This document shows positions 1 through 10,597 of a stretch of 11,600 nucleotides of DNA, piece after piece (position 1 is the first letter of the stretch; every line of letters starts with the position of its first letter). Location: the UHGV virus genome UHGV-0197807; one strand, 5' to 3'. The DNA comes from a virus. The notes under the pieces were generated by a model. That model made no database searches, was not told the origin of the DNA, and saw nothing but the letters and a program-made list of their open reading frames with translations. A program made the translations under genes and the position numbers.

Positions 1-228
1 CGTGGCTGTCTGGAATATGACGTCAGCGCCACCGACATCACCAGCTCGTTTATGGCTATCCGCAAGACCATGACCAGCAGCGGACGCAGTGCCACCTATG
101 AGGCCAGCCGCAGCGAGGAAGCCAGCCACGCCGACCTCGCCTGGGCGACCATGCACGCCCTGTTAAATGAGCCACTCACCGCCGGTATCAGCACCCCGCT
201 GACATCCACCATTCTGGAGTTTTACTGA
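1..228 (+). CDS. P: Terminase ATPase (large) subunit gpP, C-terminal fragment; 5' end lies outside the window
   Basis: Frame 1 is open from position 1 to TGA at 226-228 (...PLTSTILEFY*). The stop overlaps the ATG of the next gene (TGATG), typical phage coupling. Identity is by synteny only: in P2 the P-Q operon is transcribed toward cos with P immediately upstream of Q. Confidence 0.55.
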   Translation, partial: RGCLEYDVSATDITSSFMAIRKTMTSSGRSATYEASRSEEASHADLAWATMHALLNEPLTAGISTPLTSTILEFY

Positions 229-1262
229 TGAGCAAGAAAAAAGGGAAAACACCGCAACCTGCGGCAAAAAAAATGACCGCCAGCGCCCCGAAAATGGAGG
301 CATTCACCTTTGGTGAGCCGGTGCCGGTACTCGACCGGCGTGACATTCTGGATTACGTCGAGTGCATCAGTAACGGCAGATGGTATGAGCCACCGGTCAG
401 CTTTACCGGTCTGGCAAAAAGCCTGCGTGCTGCCGTGCATCACAGCTCGCCGATTTACGTCAAACGCAATATTCTGGCGTCGACATTTATCCCGCATCCG
501 TGGCTTTCCCAGCAGGATTTCAGCCGCTTTGTGCTGGATTTTCTGGTGTTCGGTAATGCGTTTCTGGAAAAGCGATACAGCACCACCGGTAAGGTCATCA
601 GACTGGAAACCTCACCGGCAAAATATACCCGCCGTGGCGTGGAGGAGGATGTTTACTGGTGGGTGCCGTCCTTCAACGAGCCGACACCTTTCGCGCCCGG
701 CTCCGTGTTTCACCTGCTGGAGCCGGATATTAATCAGGAGCTGTACGGTCTGCCGGAATATCTCAGCGCCCTTAACTCTGCCTGGCTGAATGAGTCGGCC
801 ACGCTGTTCCGCCGCAAGTATTACGAAAACGGCGCACATGCCGGATACATCATGTACGTCACCGATGCCGTGCAGGATCGCAACGATATCGAAATGCTCC
901 GCGAAAACATGGTGAAGTCGAAAGGCCGCAACAACTTTAAAAACCTGTTTCTCTATGCCCCACAGGGGAAAGCTGACGGCATTAAAATTATTCCGCTCAG
1001 TGAAGTGGCAACGAAGGACGATTTTTTTAATATCAAAAAAGCCAGCGCCGCTGACCTGCTGGATGCGCACCGCATCCCCTTTCAGTTGATGGGCGGCAAG
1101 CCGGAGAACGTCGGGTCGCTGGGCGATATTGAGAAAGTGGCAAAGGTCTTTGTCCGCAATGAGCTTATCCCGCTACAAGACAGGATTCGGGAAATAAACG
1201 GCTGGCTCGGTCAGGAGGTCATCCGCTTTAAAAACTACTCACTGGACACTGACAACGACTGA
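228..1262 (+). CDS. Q: Portal (capsid portal) protein gpQ
   Basis: 344-aa ORF starting MSKKKGKTPQPAAKKMTA; length and N-terminus match my recollection of P2 gpQ (344 aa). Sits between the P fragment and cos as in P2; a rho-independent terminator follows directly. Confidence 0.9.
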   Translation: MSKKKGKTPQPAAKKMTASAPKMEAFTFGEPVPVLDRRDILDYVECISNGRWYEPPVSFTGLAKSLRAAVHHSSPIYVKRNILASTFIPHPWLSQQDFSRFVLDFLVFGNAFLEKRYSTTGKVIRLETSPAKYTRRGVEEDVYWWVPSFNEPTPFAPGSVFHLLEPDINQELYGLPEYLSALNSAWLNESATLFRRKYYENGAHAGYIMYVTDAVQDRNDIEMLRENMVKSKGRNNFKNLFLYAPQGKADGIKIIPLSEVATKDDFFNIKKASAADLLDAHRIPFQLMGGKPENVGSLGDIEKVAKVFVRNELIPLQDRIREINGWLGQEVIRFKNYSLDTDND

Positions 1263-1289: not shown

Positions 1290-1431
1290 ACCCCCCGTCA
1301 TCACGCCCTCACACGCTCACCACCGCACAAAACATCCCGCAGACACACCAACGCCCCGGCTAACAATCTAAACGTCATCACGGCGCGCTCAGACGCTGAA
1401 AAAATAAAATCAGCACCACCGCCAGCGCGCA

Positions 1432-1450
1432 GTGCTTTCCCCGCCTCGCC
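1432..1450 (-). other. cos cohesive-end sequence (P2-type 19-nt 5' overhang)
   Basis: The + strand reads GTGCTTTCCCCGCCTCGCC, the reverse complement of GGCGAGGCGGGGAAAGCAC, which I recall as the P2 left cohesive end. Position (~170 bp past the Q stop) and orientation match the P2 map. From memory; not verified by alignment. Confidence 0.7.
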
Positions 1451-1499
1451 CGCCCGCTTCATGGGGCGATTTTAATGCAGTTGCATGATTTAGCCGAAT

Positions 1500-1688
1500 C
1501 CGCGCCATTGTTGACATTGATGTTTTGATATGGATATGGCGTAAGCATGCGAATTCATTCAAGATGATGCAAGAATGATGAAATTATGGTACAGATCGAT
1601 TAGCCATAATATGCCCCACGTTGTTACATGTGGTTCATAAGAGTTATGGCTCATAGGGATTTATACAAAATATATATAGGTAATTATC
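1500..1688 (+). promoter_or_regulatory. Putative promoter region of the AT-rich cargo operon
   Basis: Abrupt shift to AT-rich sequence immediately upstream of the first cargo ORF. TTGACA at 1511-1516, CATAAT at 1605-1610, TTGTTA at 1621-1626 and several TATA-like hexamers at 1660-1688, but no single -35/-10 pair with ideal spacing. The first gene has only a weak SD (TAGG, 1677-1680). Confidence 0.3.
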
Positions 1689-2753
1689 ATGTCAGGTGAA
1701 ACTCAAAATATTTCAGCAATGGCAGAAAAAATATCTTCAGACCTATTCAAATGGTTTAAGTGGGAACTCGTTGGTCCAACCAATGAAAACTTTCCATGCA
1801 TGAAAAAAGATCAACATAAAACACTAGCCGGAACACATCCAACTGATGTTGTATTTTCTTATAAAGATCCCTATTTGAATAGAACCATTTTTTTAAATAC
1901 TGATTTAAAAAGCTATATTAAAGGCTCAATTACAGCAACTAAAATGCGCAATGCTTTAGTATCGCTGGCTAATTCTATTGACTGTGCTCAAGGTTGTAAA
2001 GAATGGAAGGAGCGTTATTCTTATAAAAGTGGTGCGTCAGAAGTCAGAGGCATGCTCTTTGTATACAACCATGACGGAGACTTTGACCAATCTTTTTATG
2101 ATGTATTCTATCAGTCTCACAATACTGAAACTGATAAGAAGAAAAGAGGTATCAATCTTGACAATATACCGGTAAGGGTCGGTCAAAAAATACACATTAT
2201 TGAACCAAGAACTATAAACTACCTGCAGTCAATAATCTGCGATTTATCACAACTAAGCCACAAAAGAGAGTTTCCACTCGGTAAAAAATATCAATTCTTT
2301 TACCCAGACCTTTCACTACATAAAGTAAGCGGTTCGCCCGAAGAACTTCCAGCAACTGTAGAATTATTGACAGGCCCATTCCTTATTATAAAACATAATG
2401 ACGTCAGACATTGCAATGAAGAAACATCACAATGGGAAACCACATTTAAACATGGTTACATTATTTATTACAATGGCGAAGGAAAAAACGAGCTAGAGTT
2501 TATTTACATTCTGGACACACTATCTAAATATCAATTACTGGATGGCAATGAAAATATAAGAATTAGAATAGTTAACCCTAACATACATAAAGATGTTCGC
2601 AGTATTTTTATGCGTGCGAAGGATAGTTATTGTCAAGAATGGGGGTTCGATGAACATAAAAAAACGATAATAGATGCTATTGATTTTCAACAGGTAGAAT
2701 TTACAAAGCCTCGTTTTAGTTCGGTAGAGATTGGTTGGGAGCGACAGGCATGA
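1689..2753 (+). CDS. Hypothetical protein, cargo gene 1 (354 aa), no recognisable family; candidate defense component
   Basis: Long ORF in an AT-rich island with Lys/Asn/Ile-rich composition. Its stop (TGA 2751-2753) overlaps the ATG of the next gene (ATGA). No Walker A or other confident catalytic motif; a weak D...D-x-K spacing (D53/D60, D72-L-K74) is noted in the findings. Confidence 0.75.
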   Translation: MSGETQNISAMAEKISSDLFKWFKWELVGPTNENFPCMKKDQHKTLAGTHPTDVVFSYKDPYLNRTIFLNTDLKSYIKGSITATKMRNALVSLANSIDCAQGCKEWKERYSYKSGASEVRGMLFVYNHDGDFDQSFYDVFYQSHNTETDKKKRGINLDNIPVRVGQKIHIIEPRTINYLQSIICDLSQLSHKREFPLGKKYQFFYPDLSLHKVSGSPEELPATVELLTGPFLIIKHNDVRHCNEETSQWETTFKHGYIIYYNGEGKNELEFIYILDTLSKYQLLDGNENIRIRIVNPNIHKDVRSIFMRAKDSYCQEWGFDEHKKTIIDAIDFQQVEFTKPRFSSVEIGWERQA

Positions 2754-3862
2754 AAATTGGATTATATAGTGTAAATGATAAGGCAATGTTTGACGCATTG
2801 AATCAAACTAAAGTCACTCATGAAGATATGAAAAGTCTCTTTTTTAAAAGAGGAATGATTATATCCAAAGAGACTAAACGAAAAACATTGGCTTTGGATT
2901 TTTCCAGATACTATCATGGCTATTCTGATTTTGAATTTCTTTCAAACATACTCGGTTCTGTTGGGCGGAGAGAAAAAGTATCAATTAACATTATTAATAC
3001 AAATATAGATAAAAATAGTATGGAAAATACTATTAAATCTATTTGTGAAGATCTTCAAAAAGAAGGCGATATAACTAATATAAATTACACCGAGAATGGT
3101 TTTGAAGTATCAATAAAATATGTGAAACTAGATTTCAAAATGAGCGAGTTTCGCCAATCCTCATCACGTGAAGCCAAAATACAAGTTGAAATGAATGAAA
3201 GCGGTGAATTTATCACCCGTTTCCCTCAAAATGCTAAAGCAAGGGAATTCAACGAGCGCCTCGTGGAGAAGATCAAAGAAGACAACAATGAGGATCCAGC
3301 CAGTCTTGATGAGATTTCGCTCGAAACTGTTAAATCACCAGCGGAAAGAAGCAAATTTTTTGAGCAACTAATCTCAAGCATACCTAACTACAAATGCATT
3401 GACGTATCGGATGTATACGTTACGCATCCAATTCTTGAGTCAAATAAGTCTAACGAAAATGAAGATGATTCTGATGATGACGATACAATTATTGACACAG
3501 GATATCATATCTCCAAAGCTTCACTAAAAGGGCGCAGCGTTCTTGACTCTCTCGAGTTTAAGGAGTTGTTAGGAAAAGGATTTTATATTACCAAAATCAT
3601 TTGGAGTTCTGTTGTTGACACTTATAAAGACTCGGACAAATATGAATTCGAGGCTCAATTTGTCGACCCAGATAATTGCAAGTTATTCTCGTATATCGTT
3701 CGCGGTGTTTATAAGTACAAAAATATAAACGAATATGCAAATCGTCAAAATGTAGATAAAGAGAAGGAAAAACTGCTATTATTAGCACTTGAAAAAACCG
3801 CTCGCGAAATTTCAAACAGTATTATCGCCTCCAACACAATTGAGGTTGTTACTGATAAATAA
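2750..3862 (+). CDS. Hypothetical protein, cargo gene 2 (370 aa from ATG 2750), contains a polyacidic tract; candidate defense component
   Basis: The ORF track begins at TTG 2735, but ATG 2750 is preceded by GGGAG (2737-2741) and overlaps the upstream stop, so I place the start there. Contains ENEDDSDDDD (DNA ~3455-3484). No nucleotide-binding or nuclease motif recognised. Confidence 0.75.
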   Translation: MKIGLYSVNDKAMFDALNQTKVTHEDMKSLFFKRGMIISKETKRKTLALDFSRYYHGYSDFEFLSNILGSVGRREKVSINIINTNIDKNSMENTIKSICEDLQKEGDITNINYTENGFEVSIKYVKLDFKMSEFRQSSSREAKIQVEMNESGEFITRFPQNAKAREFNERLVEKIKEDNNEDPASLDEISLETVKSPAERSKFFEQLISSIPNYKCIDVSDVYVTHPILESNKSNENEDDSDDDDTIIDTGYHISKASLKGRSVLDSLEFKELLGKGFYITKIIWSSVVDTYKDSDKYEFEAQFVDPDNCKLFSYIVRGVYKYKNINEYANRQNVDKEKEKLLLLALEKTAREISNSIIASNTIEVVTDK

Positions 3863-3873
3863 AAGGAGTTGTT

Positions 3874-4545
3874 ATGAAAACAAAATGGTTTACTGCCAAC
3901 TTCCCTGCTGGACTTGATAGTTTATATCAGTCTATCATTAACACTCCTTTTGATAGTGATAAAGGCTGGGGATTTAGTATCAACTCATATGAAGAAAATG
4001 CAATATCATCTCGATACATCGAGAAAGTAGAGGTCAACGAGATAATCGTTGATCCATATGGAAACGAGACTCAATATACACAGCTAAAATATATTCAATT
4101 TAACTTTTGGCTTTACACAACAAAAGGTAAAAACTTCATCTTAATCATTGAGTCGCCTCCCAGAAGCATTAAGAACTTCATATCAAACATAATTAAATCA
4201 ACACATTCTGATTTTAATGTGTCAAATCTCAACATCAAAATTGAGGACTTCATTTATTTCCTGACCCCGCACTTTGAAAAAATACAAGTGCACAAGGCAA
4301 AATTAAAAGACTTAACGTTTAGCAAACACACATCCGGCATACTGGAACTTGAGTCATCAAGTGACGCACTTATGGAAATAAGAAACATTTTCAAAAATGC
4401 AAATTTTACAATTGATAAAGTTAAACTTAATGTTAAGGACGTTACCGGTTATGAGTCATTAGAAATTAACACAAATGGGTCCATTTCACTTTCAGAGCAA
4501 ATTTTTGACAAGGTGTATCGAACCATAGAAAGGTTTGCCCTTTAA
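3874..4545 (+). CDS. Hypothetical protein, cargo gene 3 (223 aa), no recognisable family; candidate defense component
   Basis: ATG 3874 is preceded by a strong SD AAGGAG (3862-3867), 11 nt after the cargo gene 2 stop. AT-rich composition as for genes 1-2; followed by a hairpin terminator. Confidence 0.75.
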   Translation: MKTKWFTANFPAGLDSLYQSIINTPFDSDKGWGFSINSYEENAISSRYIEKVEVNEIIVDPYGNETQYTQLKYIQFNFWLYTTKGKNFILIIESPPRSIKNFISNIIKSTHSDFNVSNLNIKIEDFIYFLTPHFEKIQVHKAKLKDLTFSKHTSGILELESSSDALMEIRNIFKNANFTIDKVKLNVKDVTGYESLEINTNGSISLSEQIFDKVYRTIERFAL

Positions 4546-4582
4546 GTTAACAATACAATTCAATTCTTTTGATGTAATAAAA

Positions 4583-4620
4583 ACGGCCTCATTAAAAATG
4601 AGGCTTATCGTTTTATTATT
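4583..4620. terminator. Bidirectional rho-independent terminator between the cargo operon (+) and gene A (-)
   Basis: Perfect 8-bp stem gcctcatt/aatgaggc (4586-4593 and 4598-4605) with loop aaaa, flanked by T-rich sequence on both strands (ttatcgttttatt on +, cgttttta on -). Confidence 0.55.
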
Positions 4621-4710
4621 GTAGCCATGCCATCTGGTTTTCACCTTTTCCTCCAGCACAGTATTAATACACACCTTATATAGTTTTATCTCTTAGATAT
4701 TCACACTATT

Positions 4711-6990
4711 TCAATCTATTACAGTTGTGAACCCTGGCCATCCATCAGCGACCGGATAAGCGAATTTTTTCCCGTCATAATTTACGGTCGCGCCACGCGC
4801 CAGCGCCTCAAGCTCCCATCGCTGCGGCCTGATACCGTTCTGAGCAAGGTCAACGCGGATACGGGGAATTTGCATTCGTTCCGACCGGGTCAGTCTGGCC
4901 GATGGCGCTATTTCATGCGGTTTTAACGGGCTTCCGTTTCTTTGCTGGCGGTTTGGTCTTCTCAGTCCGTGTTTTAATGCACCCCTGAGCGCCCTCACGA
5001 CCTCCGGGTCACTCCATTCGATGACACCGTCATCAACCAGATTAAGCACTGCTGCGGCGTGCTCAGAAGGTGTGGGAGCCGGTAACGAAGTATCACCACC
5101 GGTGAGCGTTCCACAGTTATTGACAGGACTCCGAGGCGCGGCGATGCCGCTTTTTAAAGTCAAAGGCTCCACGACCGGAACTTTCGGCACAATGCGCCAG
5201 TCCGTCGTTCTGGTGATATGAATATGACGCGCGCCGAGATGCGGCGCGTAAATGCCGACCACTCTCTCGACTTCTTCCTCGTACTCGTTAACTTCATCCG
5301 ACGGACTACGGGCGACCCTGACAGTCTGACAATCGCGCGGGACATTTGCCCCACCCTGCGCGCTGATATACAGCGCAAAATCGCCACTGTCTGCGGCAGC
5401 GCGTGCAGCCTCGACACGTTCGTCAAACTCATCAGCAATGCTGACGCCGCGAGGTAATTTGCGTAGTTCACGGTAAGCCCCCATTGTCGGCAGGCCAACA
5501 GTTTTAAATTGCGGAATGCGCCACGTTGACGCCCATGCGGTAACAGCCGCGGCAGTGTCTTTCAGCGGCCTGCCGGTATCGTTATCGAGCTGACCATCCA
5601 GTGCATAGCCGTCGATGTTTTTTGAAATGTATTTCGCGATATATCCCGCAGCACCGCCCCGGTTAAGGTGTTTTGCCTGAAAACGGTTTCGCGCAGCTCC
5701 TCTTTCGTCGCTATCCTCTTTGAGCGCGTAGCGACGCATGATTTCAATAATCTGGTTACGCTGGCGTGGATTACAAAAAAGCATCATATGCCAGTGCGGC
5801 GTTCCGTCGTGGTGTGGCTCGACGACTCGCAAACCGTAGACCTGTAAATCATTATCCTTGAATGCCGTGCGCATCAGGCTCCAGATACGGCAGAGATAAC
5901 GCTGCGCATCCTTTGGATTAAATGCCTCATCGTTCCAGCCGTGATTAAGCTGGACGGTTTTACTTTCTCCTTTTCCGACCTGACGTGTCGGGTGATACTT
6001 TGACGGCGTGGTCAGCGTGATAAACATCCCCACATCACCCTCTGCGGCGGCGTAACGCTCAATACCGGCGATTGTGTTCATCAGCTCCATCCGGCGAATT
6101 TCAGGATTAGAAATACTGCCCATCACCTTACTGATAAGGTCGATGCGCTCGCCGGTTTCCCTGTTTTCGAGGTCACACGATTTAAGAAATTCCAGATTTG
6201 CCTGGCGGCGTGCACGCACATCACGAATGGCATGTTTACTGGCATAAGGAGAACGGTCTTTATTGACCTCCCCGACAGCAATCAGTAACGCCTCATGCCA
6301 GCGCATACGCTGGCCTTTGAGCTGATGAGTCCACCACTCATCGTTAAACAGACGGGCAATGGCAGAATATGCCTGCCTCGTGGTCATCTGTCCTTTACGG
6401 TATTTTTTCCAGTAAAGCGGGGAAATATTGAAAGCACGTGCAGCGCCAGCAACATGACCATAGAGGTGAGCCTGCACCTCATCCGTAAACAGCGATTCTT
6501 TTTCGCCATGTGCATCCACCCATGCATCGCTGAGTTCCTCATACATCATGAAAAGCTGCGATGAGATACGGGCGGCAAACTTTTTCAGCTCCTTGTCATT
6601 CATTCCCGGCAGGCGCGCATAGTGGTCACGCTCTGCCAGAAACAGCAACGACGCGTCGGTGTTCATTTCATGGCGCTGATTCACACGCTCAATGCGCGGC
6701 CATAAACGACGCTGAAAAGTGGATGTGAGGAAATAAAACCCGTGCACCGGGCTTTTATTGTGCAGGATGTAGTCATAGCGTGAAGTAAACAGCGAGCGCA
6801 AAAAGTAAGGCAGGCGGTTAATCGTGGATAAAACACCTTGCACCTGACGCATCTCGTCACGTGTAAGGGGTCTTTCGCGCCCGACAGCCTCGCGTGGCGC
6901 GTTCCATGCATAAGCACCGGTAAACGCCTTACCGGTGCCTGCGGCAAATGCTGACGGAGGGACAAAACGCCCGGAGGCTTTAACGTCCAT
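4711..6990 (-). CDS. A: Replication initiation protein gpA (rolling-circle HUH endonuclease)
   Basis: The ORF track gives 4711-7032 with a TTG start; ATG 6990 (MDVKASGRF...) has a GAGG SD upstream and gives 759 aa (P2 gpA is ~761 aa). HUH-type motif PHWHMMLF (H-W-H at 5788-5796) and tyrosine pair GYIAKYISK (Tyr codons at 5641-5643 and 5629-5631). Counted from ATG 6990 these are Tyr450 and Tyr454, the numbering I recall for the P2 A active-site tyrosines. Confidence 0.9.
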   Translation of the reverse strand: MDVKASGRFVPPSAFAAGTGKAFTGAYAWNAPREAVGRERPLTRDEMRQVQGVLSTINRLPYFLRSLFTSRYDYILHNKSPVHGFYFLTSTFQRRLWPRIERVNQRHEMNTDASLLFLAERDHYARLPGMNDKELKKFAARISSQLFMMYEELSDAWVDAHGEKESLFTDEVQAHLYGHVAGAARAFNISPLYWKKYRKGQMTTRQAYSAIARLFNDEWWTHQLKGQRMRWHEALLIAVGEVNKDRSPYASKHAIRDVRARRQANLEFLKSCDLENRETGERIDLISKVMGSISNPEIRRMELMNTIAGIERYAAAEGDVGMFITLTTPSKYHPTRQVGKGESKTVQLNHGWNDEAFNPKDAQRYLCRIWSLMRTAFKDNDLQVYGLRVVEPHHDGTPHWHMMLFCNPRQRNQIIEIMRRYALKEDSDERGAARNRFQAKHLNRGGAAGYIAKYISKNIDGYALDGQLDNDTGRPLKDTAAAVTAWASTWRIPQFKTVGLPTMGAYRELRKLPRGVSIADEFDERVEAARAAADSGDFALYISAQGGANVPRDCQTVRVARSPSDEVNEYEEEVERVVGIYAPHLGARHIHITRTTDWRIVPKVPVVEPLTLKSGIAAPRSPVNNCGTLTGGDTSLPAPTPSEHAAAVLNLVDDGVIEWSDPEVVRALRGALKHGLRRPNRQQRNGSPLKPHEIAPSARLTRSERMQIPRIRVDLAQNGIRPQRWELEALARGATVNYDGKKFAYPVADGWPGFTTVID

Positions 6991-7255: not shown

Positions 7256-7476
7256 GCCGTTCTCCGGTAATGTTTGTTTTTTGCTTCAAAGACTGACTGA
7301 CAGGAAACACAACGCGTGGCTGACGGATAAGCCGCACGACGGGCAGCAGGTATTGGCGCGTCACACTCTTCGCAAACCAGCGCAGAAGCACCGCAATGTT
7401 TTACCCTTGCCGCGTTAATCTGGCGCTCCAGTAATTCAGCCTGTTGTTCCTGAATGAAATCTACGTTGTCCGGCAT
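7252..7476 (-). CDS. TraR/DksA-family C4 zinc-finger protein (74 aa), P2 orf82-position
   Basis: Four-Cys motif C-x2-C-x17-C-x2-C (VCEECDAPIPAARRAAYPSATRCVSCQ), characteristic of DksA/TraR-type zinc fingers. ATG 7476 overlaps the upstream stop (TAATG); SD AAGGA upstream. Confidence 0.7.
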   Translation of the reverse strand: MPDNVDFIQEQQAELLERQINAARVKHCGASALVCEECDAPIPAARRAAYPSATRCVSCQSVFEAKNKHYRRTA

Positions 7477-7778
7477 TACCAGTTCCTTTTGTCGTTCAGT
7501 TTCTTAAATTCATCAGCGCAATAGCTGGCGAGTTCTGTCGTTAATTTTGTCAGTTCATCCACTGAGGAAATTTGCTTGTGAAATACAGCGCGTTTAACAA
7601 GTAAATTGACCACATCAGACAGGAGGTTTAATTCGCTCTGATAAATCGCGATAACAGATTCAGTTATGTCGCGCTTTTCTTTATCAAGACCAAGTTGAAT
7701 AAGAGACAAATCGCCATTTTCCATAACGGCGATTTTTAAGGCGTTATTCAGTAATACAACTGAACGAGAACAGGACAT
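7476..7778 (-). CDS. Small hypothetical protein (100 aa), P2 orf81-position
   Basis: The ORF track start is TTG 7781; the adjacent ATG 7778 is preceded by GGAGG and overlaps the upstream stop (TGATG). Confidence 0.6.
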   Translation of the reverse strand: MSCSRSVVLLNNALKIAVMENGDLSLIQLGLDKEKRDITESVIAIYQSELNLLSDVVNLLVKRAVFHKQISSVDELTKLTTELASYCADEFKKLNDKRNW

Positions 7779-8002
7779 CAAAGCACCTCCCCGCGAGACA
7801 ATCCGATATTGTGAAATTTTTCCGACTCCTGACTGAGCAGCTCGACTATCTCCACGCGGGATAACTCCGCCTTTGTGATGTGGCGAATCATGGCGTCAAG
7901 ATGAGAAGAAAAGCGCGTCGCAGCGTCGGCCTGTGCTTCGGTTCTGGCCTGTTGCAGCAGTAATGCGTATATACCGCACTGATTTTCAGAAACTGTATGC
8001 AT
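7778..8002 (-). CDS. Small hypothetical protein (74 aa), P2 orf80-position
   Basis: The ORF track start is 8035; internal ATG 8002 (MHTVSENQ...) has GGAG 8 nt upstream, so I place the start there. Confidence 0.6.
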
Positions 8003-8743: not shown

Positions 8744-9100
8744 TTAAGCCGCACGGCCATGTCTTGATTTGCTGTAACTAATGCGATTTTTCCAGTCATG
8801 CCATTCTGTCGGAGCTTCATCAACCAGTTGGGCTGCGTACTTGTCCCACTCACGGCGATTAATCCATAATTCAGCTTTCCCTCTTGGTTTTAATGGGTCT
8901 GTCATGTAGAAGGCTGGCAGCTTTCCTGCTTTAGCCATTTCAGCCACCGCGCGTGGTGTCTTACCGATGTAAAGAGCAAAACCTTCTTTCGACAGCAAAT
9001 CAGATGGGCGCTCTGAAATCTGAATGCTTTTACGTTTGGCTTCATTTTCGAAACTTGCCTCATCGCTAGTTGGACAAGAAATTTCTACATTTGTCGTCAC
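8744..9100 (-). CDS. cox: Cox-like excisionase / lytic-switch regulator
   Basis: C-terminal half (FALYIGKTPRAVAEMAKAGKLPAFYMTDP...) resembles my recollection of P2 Cox (FAKLIGKSTGAVRRMIDKGKLPVIDMTDP...). Divergent from C, as in P2. Start uncertain: ATG 9115 has no SD, whereas GTG 9100 follows GGAGGA at 7 nt; either gives a protein longer (118-123 aa) than P2 Cox (91 aa). Confidence 0.7.
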   Translation of the reverse strand: MTTNVEISCPTSDEASFENEAKRKSIQISERPSDLLSKEGFALYIGKTPRAVAEMAKAGKLPAFYMTDPLKPRGKAELWINRREWDKYAAQLVDEAPTEWHDWKNRISYSKSRHGRAA

Positions 9101-9115
9101 TTTGCTATCCTCCAT

Positions 9116-9208
9116 AAGATTTGCGATTCACCAACTGGAGCCATCTAGAGCCTTTTTGAGTGAATCACAAATTGCCAAGTAGAAATATAATTGGAGATTA
9201 GCAAAATT
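9116..9208. promoter_or_regulatory. Divergent C/cox immunity-switch region (putative Pc/Pe promoters and operators)
   Basis: ~90-bp region between divergent cox and C, the position of the P2 Pe/Pc switch. Perfect TATAAT at 9186-9191 facing C; inverted repeat gattcac (9126-9132) / gtgaatc (9163-9169). No operator assignment possible from sequence alone. Confidence 0.4.
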
Positions 9209-9508
9209 ATGTCAAGTGAACAAAGTGAGAAACTAAAGCTCATCCGTGAATCCGAACGCCTTAAAACTAAGGAACTTGCTGAATTAATTGGAATTAATTA
9301 CTACACATATCATGGATATGAATCAGGAAAATCAAAAATGCCTATGGAAGCAGGTATGAAGCTGTTTAAGCATCCACGCTTTCGCAAGTATCGTGACTGG
9401 TTCATGTTTGATGAAACAGATCCAGCAGCTGGACAAATAGCCCCGGCTCTCGCACACATTGGGCAAGACTCAACAACCTTGCACCACTCAGACCAGAAGA
9501 CTGGCTGA
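9209..9508 (+). CDS. C: Immunity repressor C
   Basis: From ATG 9209 the protein is 99 aa, the size of P2 C. C-terminal region ...QIAPALAHIGQDSTT..HSDQKTG matches my recollection of P2 C (...QIAPALAHFGQNETT..HSGQKTG). The ORF track's TTG 9191 start is less likely. Confidence 0.85.
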   Translation: MSSEQSEKLKLIRESERLKTKELAELIGINYYTYHGYESGKSKMPMEAGMKLFKHPRFRKYRDWFMFDETDPAAGQIAPALAHIGQDSTTLHHSDQKTG

Positions 9509-9601: not shown

Positions 9602-10597
9602 ATGTCTATTAAAAAGCTCGATGATGGTCGTTATGAAGTGGACGTCAGACCGCAGGGTGCAGATGGAAAACGTATCAGGCGGAAATTTAAAACTAAAGGT
9701 GAAGCTCAGGCATTCGAACGTCATGTACTGGTTAACTACCACAACAAAGAGTGGTTGGAGAAACCAGCCGACCGCCGAACTCTTACAGAGTTGTTAGGTA
9801 GATGGTGGATATATCACGGAAAATCACATGAGCGTGGAGATATTGAACGGGGGCGTTTAACGACAATAATCGCCAAATTTGCAGAAATGGGAGTGTCCAG
9901 AGCTGACCAGCTAACAAAGAAAACGATAACTGATTATCGCGTTGTAATGATGAACGATGGTCTAAAACCAGCCAGCGTAAATCGACATCTGGCAATAATG
10001 AGCGGGATGTTCACCAAGTTAATTGACGCCGGTGAATACCACTCCCACAACCCGTTCCGTGATATTAAACGGTTACGTGAAGCTGTTACGGAAATGGCTT
10101 TTTTGTCCAGTGAAGAGATTACGCGGCTGTTATCCATGCTTGATGGTGATGAATTAAATGCAACTCTGGTCTGCCTTTCTACTGGTGGACGCTGGAGTGA
10201 AGTGTCTAATTTAAAAGCTGAACACATCATTAACCAGATGGTTACGTTTATGAAAACTAAAAACGGAAAACGCAGGACAATTCCCGTTTCGCAGGACCTG
10301 ATTAAACGGATCAAGACCAAAAATTCAGGCAGGCTTTTTAATGCCAGTTACTACAAAGTGCGTAACGCTCTCAGGGAAGTAAAACCCGATTTACCTGACG
10401 GACAAGCAGTACATGTTTTGAGGCATACATTTGCCACACATTTTATAATGAATGGAGGTAACATAATCACATTGCAGCGCATCCTGGGTCATTCTAACAT
10501 TCAGCAAACTATGACCTACGCACACTTTGCACCGGATTTCTTACAAGATGCTGTGACTCTTAACCCGGTGTCAGGAATGTCCATAATGCGTCCATAA
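9602..10597 (+). CDS. int: Tyrosine integrase (P2-type site-specific recombinase)
   Basis: 331-aa ORF with SD GGAGGG 6 nt upstream. C-terminal catalytic signature HVLRHTFATHF...LGHSNIQQTMTYAHF (H-x-x-R and the nucleophilic Tyr). Lies downstream of C on the same strand, adjacent to the chromosomal junction, as in P2. Confidence 0.95.
   Translation: MSIKKLDDGRYEVDVRPQGADGKRIRRKFKTKGEAQAFERHVLVNYHNKEWLEKPADRRTLTELLGRWWIYHGKSHERGDIERGRLTTIIAKFAEMGVSRADQLTKKTITDYRVVMMNDGLKPASVNRHLAIMSGMFTKLIDAGEYHSHNPFRDIKRLREAVTEMAFLSSEEITRLLSMLDGDELNATLVCLSTGGRWSEVSNLKAEHIINQMVTFMKTKNGKRRTIPVSQDLIKRIKTKNSGRLFNASYYKVRNALREVKPDLPDGQAVHVLRHTFATHFIMNGGNIITLQRILGHSNIQQTMTYAHFAPDFLQDAVTLNPVSGMSIMRP

Follow-up and report, generated by a model that had tools for sequence, protein, structure and literature searches.

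In phage P2, the genes between replication gene A and cos follow the order A-orf91-tin-old-cos (old-tin-orf91 locus: Odegrip 2006, as cited). An earlier note, made from the letters of the present DNA alone, gave this order correctly and proposed that all three genes are missing here. The window, that is, the whole 11,600-nt stretch analysed, is a P2-like (Peduovirus) prophage of E. coli whose insertion site adjoins pflA. Its left conserved arm is the portal gene Q (228..1262, plus strand; Pfam Phage_portal and PHROG 68, E = 2.8e-176), which is ~95% identical to P2 Q, and its right conserved arm is gene A (4711..6990, minus strand; Pfam Phage_GPA, E = 6.6e-123), both arms being 95-97% identical to P2. 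The 19-nt cohesive end of cos (1432..1450) is the exact reverse complement of P2 cosL, GGCGAGGCGGGGAAAGCAC, and the first base past it is 1451. The slot between A and Q that adjoins cos is the location of the P2 gpA-gpQ hotspot. P2 A aligned with 6990-4714 at 96.7% identity over 759 aa, and the A stop codon occupies 4711-4713 on the minus strand, where the note had placed it. P2 Orf91, Tin and Old, compared by tblastn and blastp with the entire window and with the three proteins encoded in the slot, reached an E-value of 0.3 at best, and the Pfam families of Old (AAA/OLD nuclease), Tin and Orf91 (DUF3850) had no match in the window, confirming that the three genes are absent. In P2, orf91 overlaps the end of A; since this gene too has been replaced, A ends with a different C-terminus (...GFTTVID* here vs ...GFSTVMEWT* in P2). 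No Rfam family or tRNA was found in or near the island.

We consider it highly probable that positions 1480-4710 are a cargo module of this cos-adjacent gpA-gpQ hotspot, in which a 3HP cassette has replaced old-tin-orf91. Reading the locus as a swap is correct, yet the hotspot and its exchange of cargo have already been published (Rousset et al. 2022, PMC9122126; Moura de Sousa et al. 2026, PMC13586616), with a mean hotspot size of 3.2 kb (PMC9122126); that defence cassettes are exchanged intact among P2-like prophages at the slot beside cos is established biology.

The slot holds three adjacent, co-directional and translationally linked genes on the plus strand, with transcription running from cos to A: hp1 (1689..2753, 354 aa), hp2 (2750..3862, 370 aa) and hp3 (3874..4545, 223 aa). 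Hp2 starts at the ATG at 2750, which forms an ATGA overlap with the Hp1 stop, and not at the TTG at 2735; the operon also contains an AAGGAG ribosome-binding site and is free of internal terminators on the plus strand. The PADLOC profiles Hp1, Hp2 and Hp3 (PDLC03004/5/6) matched in canonical order (E = 2e-63, 3.7e-37 and 6e-8) across profile positions 1-330 of 333, 4-353 of 359 and 3-199 of 227, respectively. The validated 3HP member is the 'hp + hp + hp' system of pFR109 from E. coli E1114, which protected against P1 only, of eight phages (Rousset et al. 2022, PMC9122126). The E1114 system shares gene order, co-direction and residence in a P2 hotspot with ours, and its proteins are similar in size (333/359/227 aa), whereas identity to the validated proteins is only 36, 31 and 19% (BLASTP, E = 5e-68, 2e-39 and 1e-10), which makes the present cassette a distinct subtype. 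By sequence, then, it is a member of the 3HP (Rst_3HP) anti-phage family and a distant subtype of the P1-protective member. Table S5 of Rousset et al. 2022 (PMC9122126) includes exactly these three proteins among its hotspot arrangements, though they are not the ones that were cloned there, and 3HP was listed as unclassifiable in a 2024 survey. The subtype is widespread, and the three-gene layout is conserved in Escherichia, Vibrio, Alteromonas and Salmonella. The neighbours of the Alteromonas cassette include Mrr-type and NYN nucleases, which are typical of defence islands.

Hp1 (PADLOC Hp1, PHROG 7059) is the predicted effector, with a GAPS4-type PD-(D/E)xK nuclease domain. Hp1 homologs have precomputed assignments to PF26115 (PDDEXK_GAPS4), among them the copy in Salmonella and a fragment with 100% identity, and PGAP names the protein 'PD-(D/E)XK nuclease domain-containing protein'. 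Across 35 homologs, H50 P51 D53 and N70 T71 D72 L73 K74 S75 are invariant, and with them the motif H-P-x-D...D-x-K (H50/D53/D72/K74). Scans of Hp1-3 with Pfam (a set without PF26115) and NCBIfam returned nothing useful, and profile searches of the PDB with Hp1-3 alignments gave nothing significant. A representative search with the Hp1 profile retrieved 511 clusters; all 150 matches listed were full-length Hp1-type proteins, and there was no GAPS4a-type two-gene locus among them.

Structure models of Hp2 and Hp3 were confident, and the best PDB match for each was RdgC (E. coli, PDB 2OWL), the models containing the base and centre domains of the RdgC fold. Next came the CENP-L/Iml3 and CENP-N/Chl4 pair and lambda RexA, whose fold the modelled proteins likewise resemble; CENP-L/Iml3 and CENP-N/Chl4 form a DNA-gripping heterodimer, and RdgC forms a DNA-encircling ring. 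The resemblance to RdgC does not extend to sequence, as neither Pfam RdgC nor PDB sequence searches of the cargo proteins gave an RdgC match. Hp3 is also shorter than RdgC (223 vs ~300 aa), whereas Hp2 has an additional N-terminal helical region; it further carries an acidic disordered loop (residues 230-247) and an invariant HISKASLKG motif. When Hp2 and Hp3 were compared with each other by hhalign, no homology was detected (probability 1%) and only a short KA-x-LKG strand was aligned.

The nuclease domain of Hp1 invites comparison with GAPS4, a 2:2 complex of nuclease and ring that is triggered by DNA breaks and in which one GAPS4a+b unit measures ~80 kDa; the GAPS4a motif is HGxD-SxK, with an essential Asp (Mahata et al., bioRxiv 10.1101/2025.09.07.674715). 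Besides the PF26115 membership of Hp1 homologs, the two systems share the N-terminal position of the catalytic motif, a nuclease gene that comes first and is followed by that of a ~40 kDa protein, and a similar combined mass (Hp1, 41 kDa, plus Hp2, 43 kDa, gives ~84 kDa). The GAPS4 partner forms a ring, and Hp2 and Hp3 are modelled with the fold of a ring-forming DNA binder. They differ in that 3HP is a three-gene operon where GAPS4 has two genes or a fusion, and in the motif itself (HPxD-DxK vs HGxD-SxK). What is new here, the GAPS4-type nuclease domain of Hp1 and the RdgC-fold models of Hp2 and Hp3, suggests a DNA-sensing nuclease complex. We tentatively propose that Hp1 is a GAPS4a-type PD-(D/E)xK DNase and that Hp2 and Hp3 jointly build a DNA-binding sensor in the shape of a ring or horseshoe, the heterodimeric equivalent of the homodimeric GAPS4b ring. 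Abnormal DNA (ends or breaks) sensed during infection would license Hp1 to degrade DNA, and the outcome, whether abortive or direct defence, would benefit both lysogen and prophage. It is conceivable, with somewhat greater doubt, that 3HP is a three-component relative of GAPS4 whose Hp2-Hp3 ring clamps or threads abnormal DNA to control Hp1, as a bacterial analogue of CENP-L/CENP-N. The modelled folds and the domain assignment offer a first concrete, mutable hypothesis for 3HP action; if true, it would provide a mechanism for 3HP and join RdgC, RexA, GAPS4b and 3HP as one class of DNA-state sensors. It would also call for an explanation of how the carrier phage keeps from setting off a cassette that lies beside its own cos, cleavage of which makes DNA ends in the lytic cycle.

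A defence system in which Hp2 and Hp3 are something other than a GAPS4b-like break sensor is possible, if doubtful. Hp2 and Hp3 might be a RexA-like sensor of DNA or of protein-DNA complexes that controls a separate effector, might be Hp1 inhibitors or antitoxins, released upon infection, or might lend sequence or modification specificity to a restriction-like Hp1. RexA has the RdgC fold and acts in phage exclusion, and RdgC modulates RecA and does not sense breaks; moreover, Hp2 has the HISKASLKG motif and an acidic loop that could mimic DNA or be auto-inhibitory, and the validated relative protects against one phage of eight, a narrower range than that of GAPS4. Yet the cassette has no membrane RexB-like partner, and Hp1 shares its domain family with the GAPS4a nuclease, whose partner forms a ring. 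As it has no methyltransferase, it is not a classical restriction-modification system.

We also asked whether the cargo might not be anti-phage in its E. coli host at all, but instead a moron that serves some other function, or a passenger without activity. Some other cargoes of the hotspot are indeed not defence systems (the cdtABC toxin, plasmid-partition genes), Hp3 is just 19% identical to the validated protein, and a defence role for this particular cassette is predicted from sequence. We judge a non-defence role unlikely all the same: 3HP is a validated defence family, the three ORFs are intact, translationally linked and rich in residues that are invariant across orders, and the Alteromonas neighbours are those of a defence island. 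The exact Hp3 sequence is recorded on at least 1,000 contigs, which suggests selective maintenance.

How the cassette came to lie in the slot can be read from its edges. GC content is 0.343 in 1480-4711 compared to 0.542 in the flanks, a low-GC block of ~3.2 kb whose contrast exceeds 20 SD by binomial arithmetic, and GC3 is 0.28-0.35 in the cargo genes compared to 0.55-0.66 in Q and A. Maximum-likelihood GC change points fell at 1507 on the left, ~57 bp beyond cos and close to the ~50 bp that the earlier note had given, and at 4732 on the right. The segment next to cos (1451..1479), which includes a GC-rich hairpin (1451-1468), is conserved and common to P2; homology to P2 ends at 1479. The left junction zone (1480..1507) is where homology is lost across P2-like phages and ends at the left change point, and the right junction zone (4711..4743, minus strand) comprises the A stop codon and the last ~10 codons of A. 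On the right, homology resumes at 4712 in P2, at 4724-4753 in most other phages and at 4857 in pro483. In nine P2-like phages carrying nine different cargoes (old-tin, paraMORC3+Dcm, Fic/VbhT, cdtABC, DUF4209, DUF4238, a retron with RT, and sets of hypothetical proteins), all breaks lay within 1465-1507 and 4712-4857. Among 5,426 E. coli genomes, left-arm matches ended at 1479-1507 in 2,151 and right-arm matches began at 4708-4743 in 582, while only 8-9 read through the junctions. Three independent measures, namely homology to P2 and eight other phages, match ends across hundreds of genomes and GC change points, place the edges at 1480-1507 and 4708-4743. The island is therefore enclosed between cos, together with the ~30-57 bp that adjoin it, and the last codons of A.

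The right edge corrects the earlier note, which had drawn the boundary, and the end of the composition shift, at a bidirectional terminator (4583-4620) past the A stop. Such a hairpin is indeed predicted where the cargo operon and gene A converge (4585..4605; 8-9 bp stem, 3-nt loop, T-rich tails on either side; folding energy -14.4/-13.7 kcal/mol), with a terminator-like form on both strands, and it is the sole terminator-like site on the plus strand downstream of the cargo start. Beyond it, the 105-bp spacer up to the A stop (4606..4710) is still low in GC (0.324), has no homology to P2 and is read through in only 8 of the 582 matching genomes. The shift in composition does coincide with the homology breaks, but on the right these lie at the 3′ end of A, and the hairpin is thus internal to the cargo module. 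Genomes with a different cargo lack the predicted terminator, which can therefore be assigned to this module.

Intact modules appear to be replaced whole in this slot, with no decay of genes in place. E. coli E308 carries the same pflA-integrated backbone, with arms 97.0% and 98.6% identical, and a different cargo of 3,027 bp; for this comparison DLI.5a had been tried and set aside, being a decayed prophage with a truncated A and a deleted hotspot. Conversely, this cargo is also borne by other backbones at other att sites, namely yegR in CFSAN061763 and cpxP in Salmonella. Identity to the Salmonella prophage L018 is 72-82% left of 1451, ~99.4% over the cargo and 96-98% in A, and CFSAN061763 has a single mismatch in 1384-4865, within a backbone that is 96-98% identical. 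Every match among the INPHARED phage records was confined to the flanks, and none of these records had the cargo. From these patterns of identity we infer that exchange would proceed by homologous recombination between related P2-like genomes, for which the conserved sequence at cos and the 3′ end of A would serve as arms. Together with the common break zones and the lack of any remnant of old, tin or orf91, the E308 swap and the occurrence of the cargo on other backbones bear out the earlier proposal of a clean module swap.

Entry of the island by a mobile element of its own, through transposition or site-specific integration, is very unlikely. Its composition is strongly foreign, the Alteromonas cassette sits in an integrase-associated island, and when the cassette first reached some P2-like genome, it must have done so illegitimately or through other homology. 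The island nevertheless holds no transposase or integrase, and no terminal inverted repeats or target-site duplications were found at 1480-1507 or 4708-4743, on which ground a transposon-type origin was rejected. All cargo types, moreover, have their junctions in the same conserved arms, and the tracts of high identity continue into cos on the left and into the 3′ end of A on the right, as homologous exchange predicts. There is next to no chance that Hp1-3 are strongly diverged old/tin/orf91 homologs and that divergence or decay in situ, not replacement, shaped the locus, the outcome that the earlier note had named as fatal to its reading: the genes do share the position and orientation of old-tin (from the cos side to A) and their segment has nearly the same length (3,232 vs 3,233 bp in P2), but no tblastn or blastp similarity fell below E 0.3, which refutes homology at the sequence level, Hp1-3 match different PADLOC and PHROG families at full-length coverage, Old is an AAA/OLD-family ATPase-nuclease while Hp1 belongs with PF26115 and Hp2 and Hp3 have a modelled RdgC fold, and the cassette also occurs outside P2, in Vibrio and Alteromonas.

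What the P2 locus and ours have in common is thus the slot between cos and the end of A, the direction of the cargo operon, the size and a low GC content (0.351 for the P2 segment), while the genes themselves are wholly different. The P2 cargo has a promoter region of its own, the old transcript starting ~150 bp from cos, past the homology break, and ours presumably does too. Here, the cargo-specific non-coding region upstream of hp1 (1508..1688, plus strand; GC 0.337) is the presumed promoter or leader. It was found only in the nine genomes with a close island, and its sequence is the same in the copies from Salmonella and CFSAN but diverges in a 76% variant. A sigma-70 consensus scan of 1480-1688 revealed no convincing promoter: the TTGACA at 1511-1516 was rejected for want of a good -10 partner, and a candidate at 1662-1690 because it overlaps the start codon. 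The cassette is self-contained, having a low-GC upstream region and a predicted hairpin terminator of its own, the latter opposite the end of the A operon. Since both travel with the cargo, both belong in a clone. The unit to be cloned, which the earlier note would have taken from 1451 to 4620, accordingly keeps its left end and gains on the right: it runs from ~1451/1480 to 4710 and includes the 181-bp upstream region and the terminator.

The window (11.6 kb) is a P2-like (Peduovirus) prophage of Escherichia coli, lying in the reverse orientation of the standard P2 map. From its left edge it contains only the end of the terminase gene P, then the portal gene Q (228-1262, plus strand), the Q terminator, cos, which matches the 19-nt P2 cohesive-end sequence exactly (1432-1450), a low-GC island, and the replication gene A (4711-6990, minus strand), whose product matches P2 A at 96.7% over 759 residues. 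Beyond A are the early genes (orf83, a DksA-like gene, and the equivalents of orf81 and orf80), a Cox-family gene followed by a C-type repressor gene, the integrase gene (9602-10597) and the host gene pflA. E. coli AST46 is a 100% match to the island and to the right end of the window. A 53-aa ORF (1301-1462, minus strand) spans cos, matches PHROG 17350 and is named "hypothetical protein" in several phage records; since cos cleavage would interrupt such an ORF in the linear genome, it is likely an annotation artefact propagated between records. Two more GC dips (0.37-0.41), at 7400-7800 and 9000-9400 in the early and immunity regions, may mark other mosaic segments, one being the orf81-like gene and the other the intergenic region of cox and C.

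In P2, the order of genes is A, orf91, tin, old and cos. Searches with P2 Orf91, Tin and Old gave no match better than E = 0.3, either in the window or in its three cargo products, confirming that all three genes are absent, as an earlier note on this DNA had claimed. The cargo consists of Hp1 (1689-2753), Hp2 (2750-3862) and Hp3 (3874-4545), all on the plus strand. The Hp1 stop and Hp2 start codons overlap (ATGA at 2750-2753), PGAP preferring this start to an upstream TTG, and Hp3, preceded by an 11-nt gap, has an AAGGAG ribosome-binding site. A search upstream of Hp1 located no promoter. The layout of three genes with overlapping frames (~355, 373 and 235 aa) is kept at a plain chromosomal site in Vibrio cholerae, in an integrase-linked island of Alteromonas next to Mrr-type and NYN nuclease genes, and in P2-like prophages of Salmonella; Hp1-Hp2-Hp3 behaves as a self-contained cassette. 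The divergent P2-like prophage of E. coli MRSN346647 has an extra 61-aa ORF between Hp3 and A, and its DUF3850 (orf91-type) gene (L012, 9576-9857) lies upstream of A in the early operon, rather than downstream as in P2.

The ends of the module were located by three independent measures, which agree: homology to P2-like phages, match ends in a population of genomes, and GC change points. Homology to P2 ends at 1479 and restarts at 4712. Against eight other P2-like phages, the breaks fall at 1465-1507 and 4724-4753, except for a right break at 4857 in pro483; the cargoes of these phages are paraMORC3+Dcm, an exoribonuclease locus, Fic/VbhT, cdtABC, DUF4209, DUF4238, a retron with its RT, and sets of hypothetical proteins. 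Among 5,426 complete E. coli genomes, matches on the cos side end at 1479-1507 in 2,151 genomes and run on in only 9, while those on the A side start at 4708-4743 in 582 and run on in only 8. The GC content is 0.343 in the island and 0.542 outside (GC3, 0.28-0.35 versus 0.55-0.66), with maximum-likelihood change points at 1507 and 4732. A hairpin at 4585-4605, the only plus-strand terminator-like site past the cargo start, scores as terminator-like on both strands, with a folding energy of ~-14 kcal/mol either way. The earlier note had bounded the composition shift by a point just past cos and by this terminator. Its left edge, the A stop codon (found at 4711-4713) and the bidirectional hairpin between cargo and A all hold, and its right boundary alone has to be moved: the stretch 4606-4710 (105 bp), which has no counterpart in P2, still has a GC content of 0.32. 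From the homology breaks and genome match ends, it follows that 1508-1688 (181 bp), the terminator and the spacer to the A stop move together with the cargo. The final few A codons belong to the junction, and the C-terminus of A in the window is unlike that of P2 A.

The replaced P2 segment (30313-33545; 3,233 bp) and its unrelated counterpart in the window (1480-4711; 3,232 bp) are nearly equal in length, both near the published mean of 3.2 kb for P2 hotspot cargo (Rousset et al. 2022, PMC9122126). A packaging-size constraint is possible, but the equality is probably a coincidence, because the slot varies from 1.2 to 4.6 kb in other phages.

The earlier note had read this arrangement as a clean module swap rather than decay, and comparison with related prophages bears this out. 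In E. coli E308, a prophage with this backbone is likewise integrated at pflA (arms 97.0% and 98.6% identical), and the slot is occupied by an oppositely oriented AAA-ATPase locus of 3,027 bp. Conversely, the cargo of the window recurs in P2-like prophages at yegR (CFSAN061763) and at cpxP (Salmonella), and a 76%-identical version occupies a more divergent P2-like backbone. The identity tracts are sharp: CFSAN061763 differs by one mismatch across 1384-4865 within a backbone 96-98% identical, whereas identity to the Salmonella prophage is 72-82% up to 1451, ~99.4% over the cargo and 96-98% through A. The last clustered mismatches with the latter (L018, 5381-5830) are at 1432, 1446 and 1451, and identity is ~99% directly past cos; this abrupt jump suggests crossing over at the terminase-cut end or at the conserved sequence of cos. 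The island edges lack both terminal inverted repeats and target-site duplications, the island encodes no recombinase, and neither Rfam families nor tRNAs were found in it or its surroundings. Homologous exchange is the simplest reading, with the cos region and the A 3′ end as the stretches in which recombination would take place. Decay does occur at this locus but looks quite unlike the intact swap in the window: in E. coli DLI.5a (L021, 3240-7991), the int-pflA arm is 100% identical and the prophage has decayed: A is truncated and fused beside part of a tail gene, and the head genes, cos and the hotspot have been deleted. Phage pro147 (L009, 1187-3501), besides cargo in the A-cos slot, has a further insertion between Q and cos, across cos from the usual hotspot, which consists of a retron Ec48 effector and a reverse transcriptase.

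The module swap at this hotspot is already known and the precise arrangement already catalogued: 1,650 arrangements were described for the gpA-gpQ hotspot (Rousset et al. 2022, PMC9122126), the exact trio WP_024160514, WP_001398851 and WP_032238998 is one of those in Table S5 of that study, and P2 and P4 were reported to swap intact defence loci rapidly, with no pseudogenes arising in the process (Moura de Sousa et al. 2026, PMC13586616). PADLOC matched Hp1, Hp2 and Hp3 to the anti-phage defence family 3HP (Rst_3HP) nearly full length (E = 2e-63, 3.7e-37 and 6e-8, respectively), and the ORFs also match three PHROGs of unknown function. The validated 3HP system (pFR109, "hp + hp + hp"), which comes from E. 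coli E1114, gave protection against just one phage out of eight (Rousset et al. 2022, PMC9122126). Identity to its proteins is 36% for Hp1, 31% for Hp2 and 19% for Hp3, making the cargo a distant 3HP subtype. Hp3, exact or as a one-residue variant, is on 655 and on at least 1,000 contigs. Since its 3,741 indexed blocks of the collection are mostly from Salmonella enterica and only 10 of the 5,426 complete E. coli genomes carry it, this subtype appears to be mainly a cargo of Salmonella P2-like prophages.

Homologs of Hp1 carry the Pfam domain PF26115 (PDDEXK_GAPS4), in agreement with UniRef and PGAP names, and H50-P51-x-D53 and N70-T71-D72-L73-K74-S75 are invariant among 35 homologs down to 43% identity. 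GAPS4, which shares this domain, has in GAPS4a an N-terminal HGxD-SxK motif, comparable to the HPxD…DLK residues of Hp1, in which the Asp of GAPS4a is essential; GAPS4a forms a 2:2 complex with the ring-forming GAPS4b, and the system senses DNA breaks and degrades host and phage DNA (bioRxiv 10.1101/2025.09.07.674715). Hp2 and Hp3 had no Pfam, NCBIfam or PDB sequence match and no detectable relationship to each other; their AlphaFold models are confident (pLDDT 83.4 and 90.9, respectively). The RdgC dimer forms a ring whose pore binds DNA; two proteins with the RdgC fold, Iml3 and Chl4, pair into a DNA-gripping heterodimer, and the phage-exclusion protein RexA also has this fold. Because the Hp1 domain, the nuclease-ring design of GAPS4 and these RdgC-fold DNA binders concur, we tentatively propose, with somewhat less than even confidence, that Hp2 and Hp3 would form a heterodimeric RdgC-like DNA sensor controlling Hp1 as the DNase, which would make the cassette a GAPS4 counterpart with three genes. 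Rst_3HP was unclassifiable in a 2024 survey, neither 3HP nor RdgC appears in the preprint on GAPS4 (bioRxiv 10.1101/2025.09.07.674715), and RdgC is not mentioned among the top-ranked matches listed from a literature search; this mechanistic lead is the sole part of the analysis that goes beyond the literature covered by the search. Hp2 contains a strongly acidic, low-confidence loop (residues 226-250, …NENEDDSDDDD…; pLDDT <50 at 230-247), directly followed by an invariant HISKASLKG motif (252-261), and a comparable invariant strand, K143-x-K145-x-L147 (VHKAKLKDL), is present in Hp3. The acidic loop could be an auto-inhibitory DNA mimic adjoining a shared functional strand.
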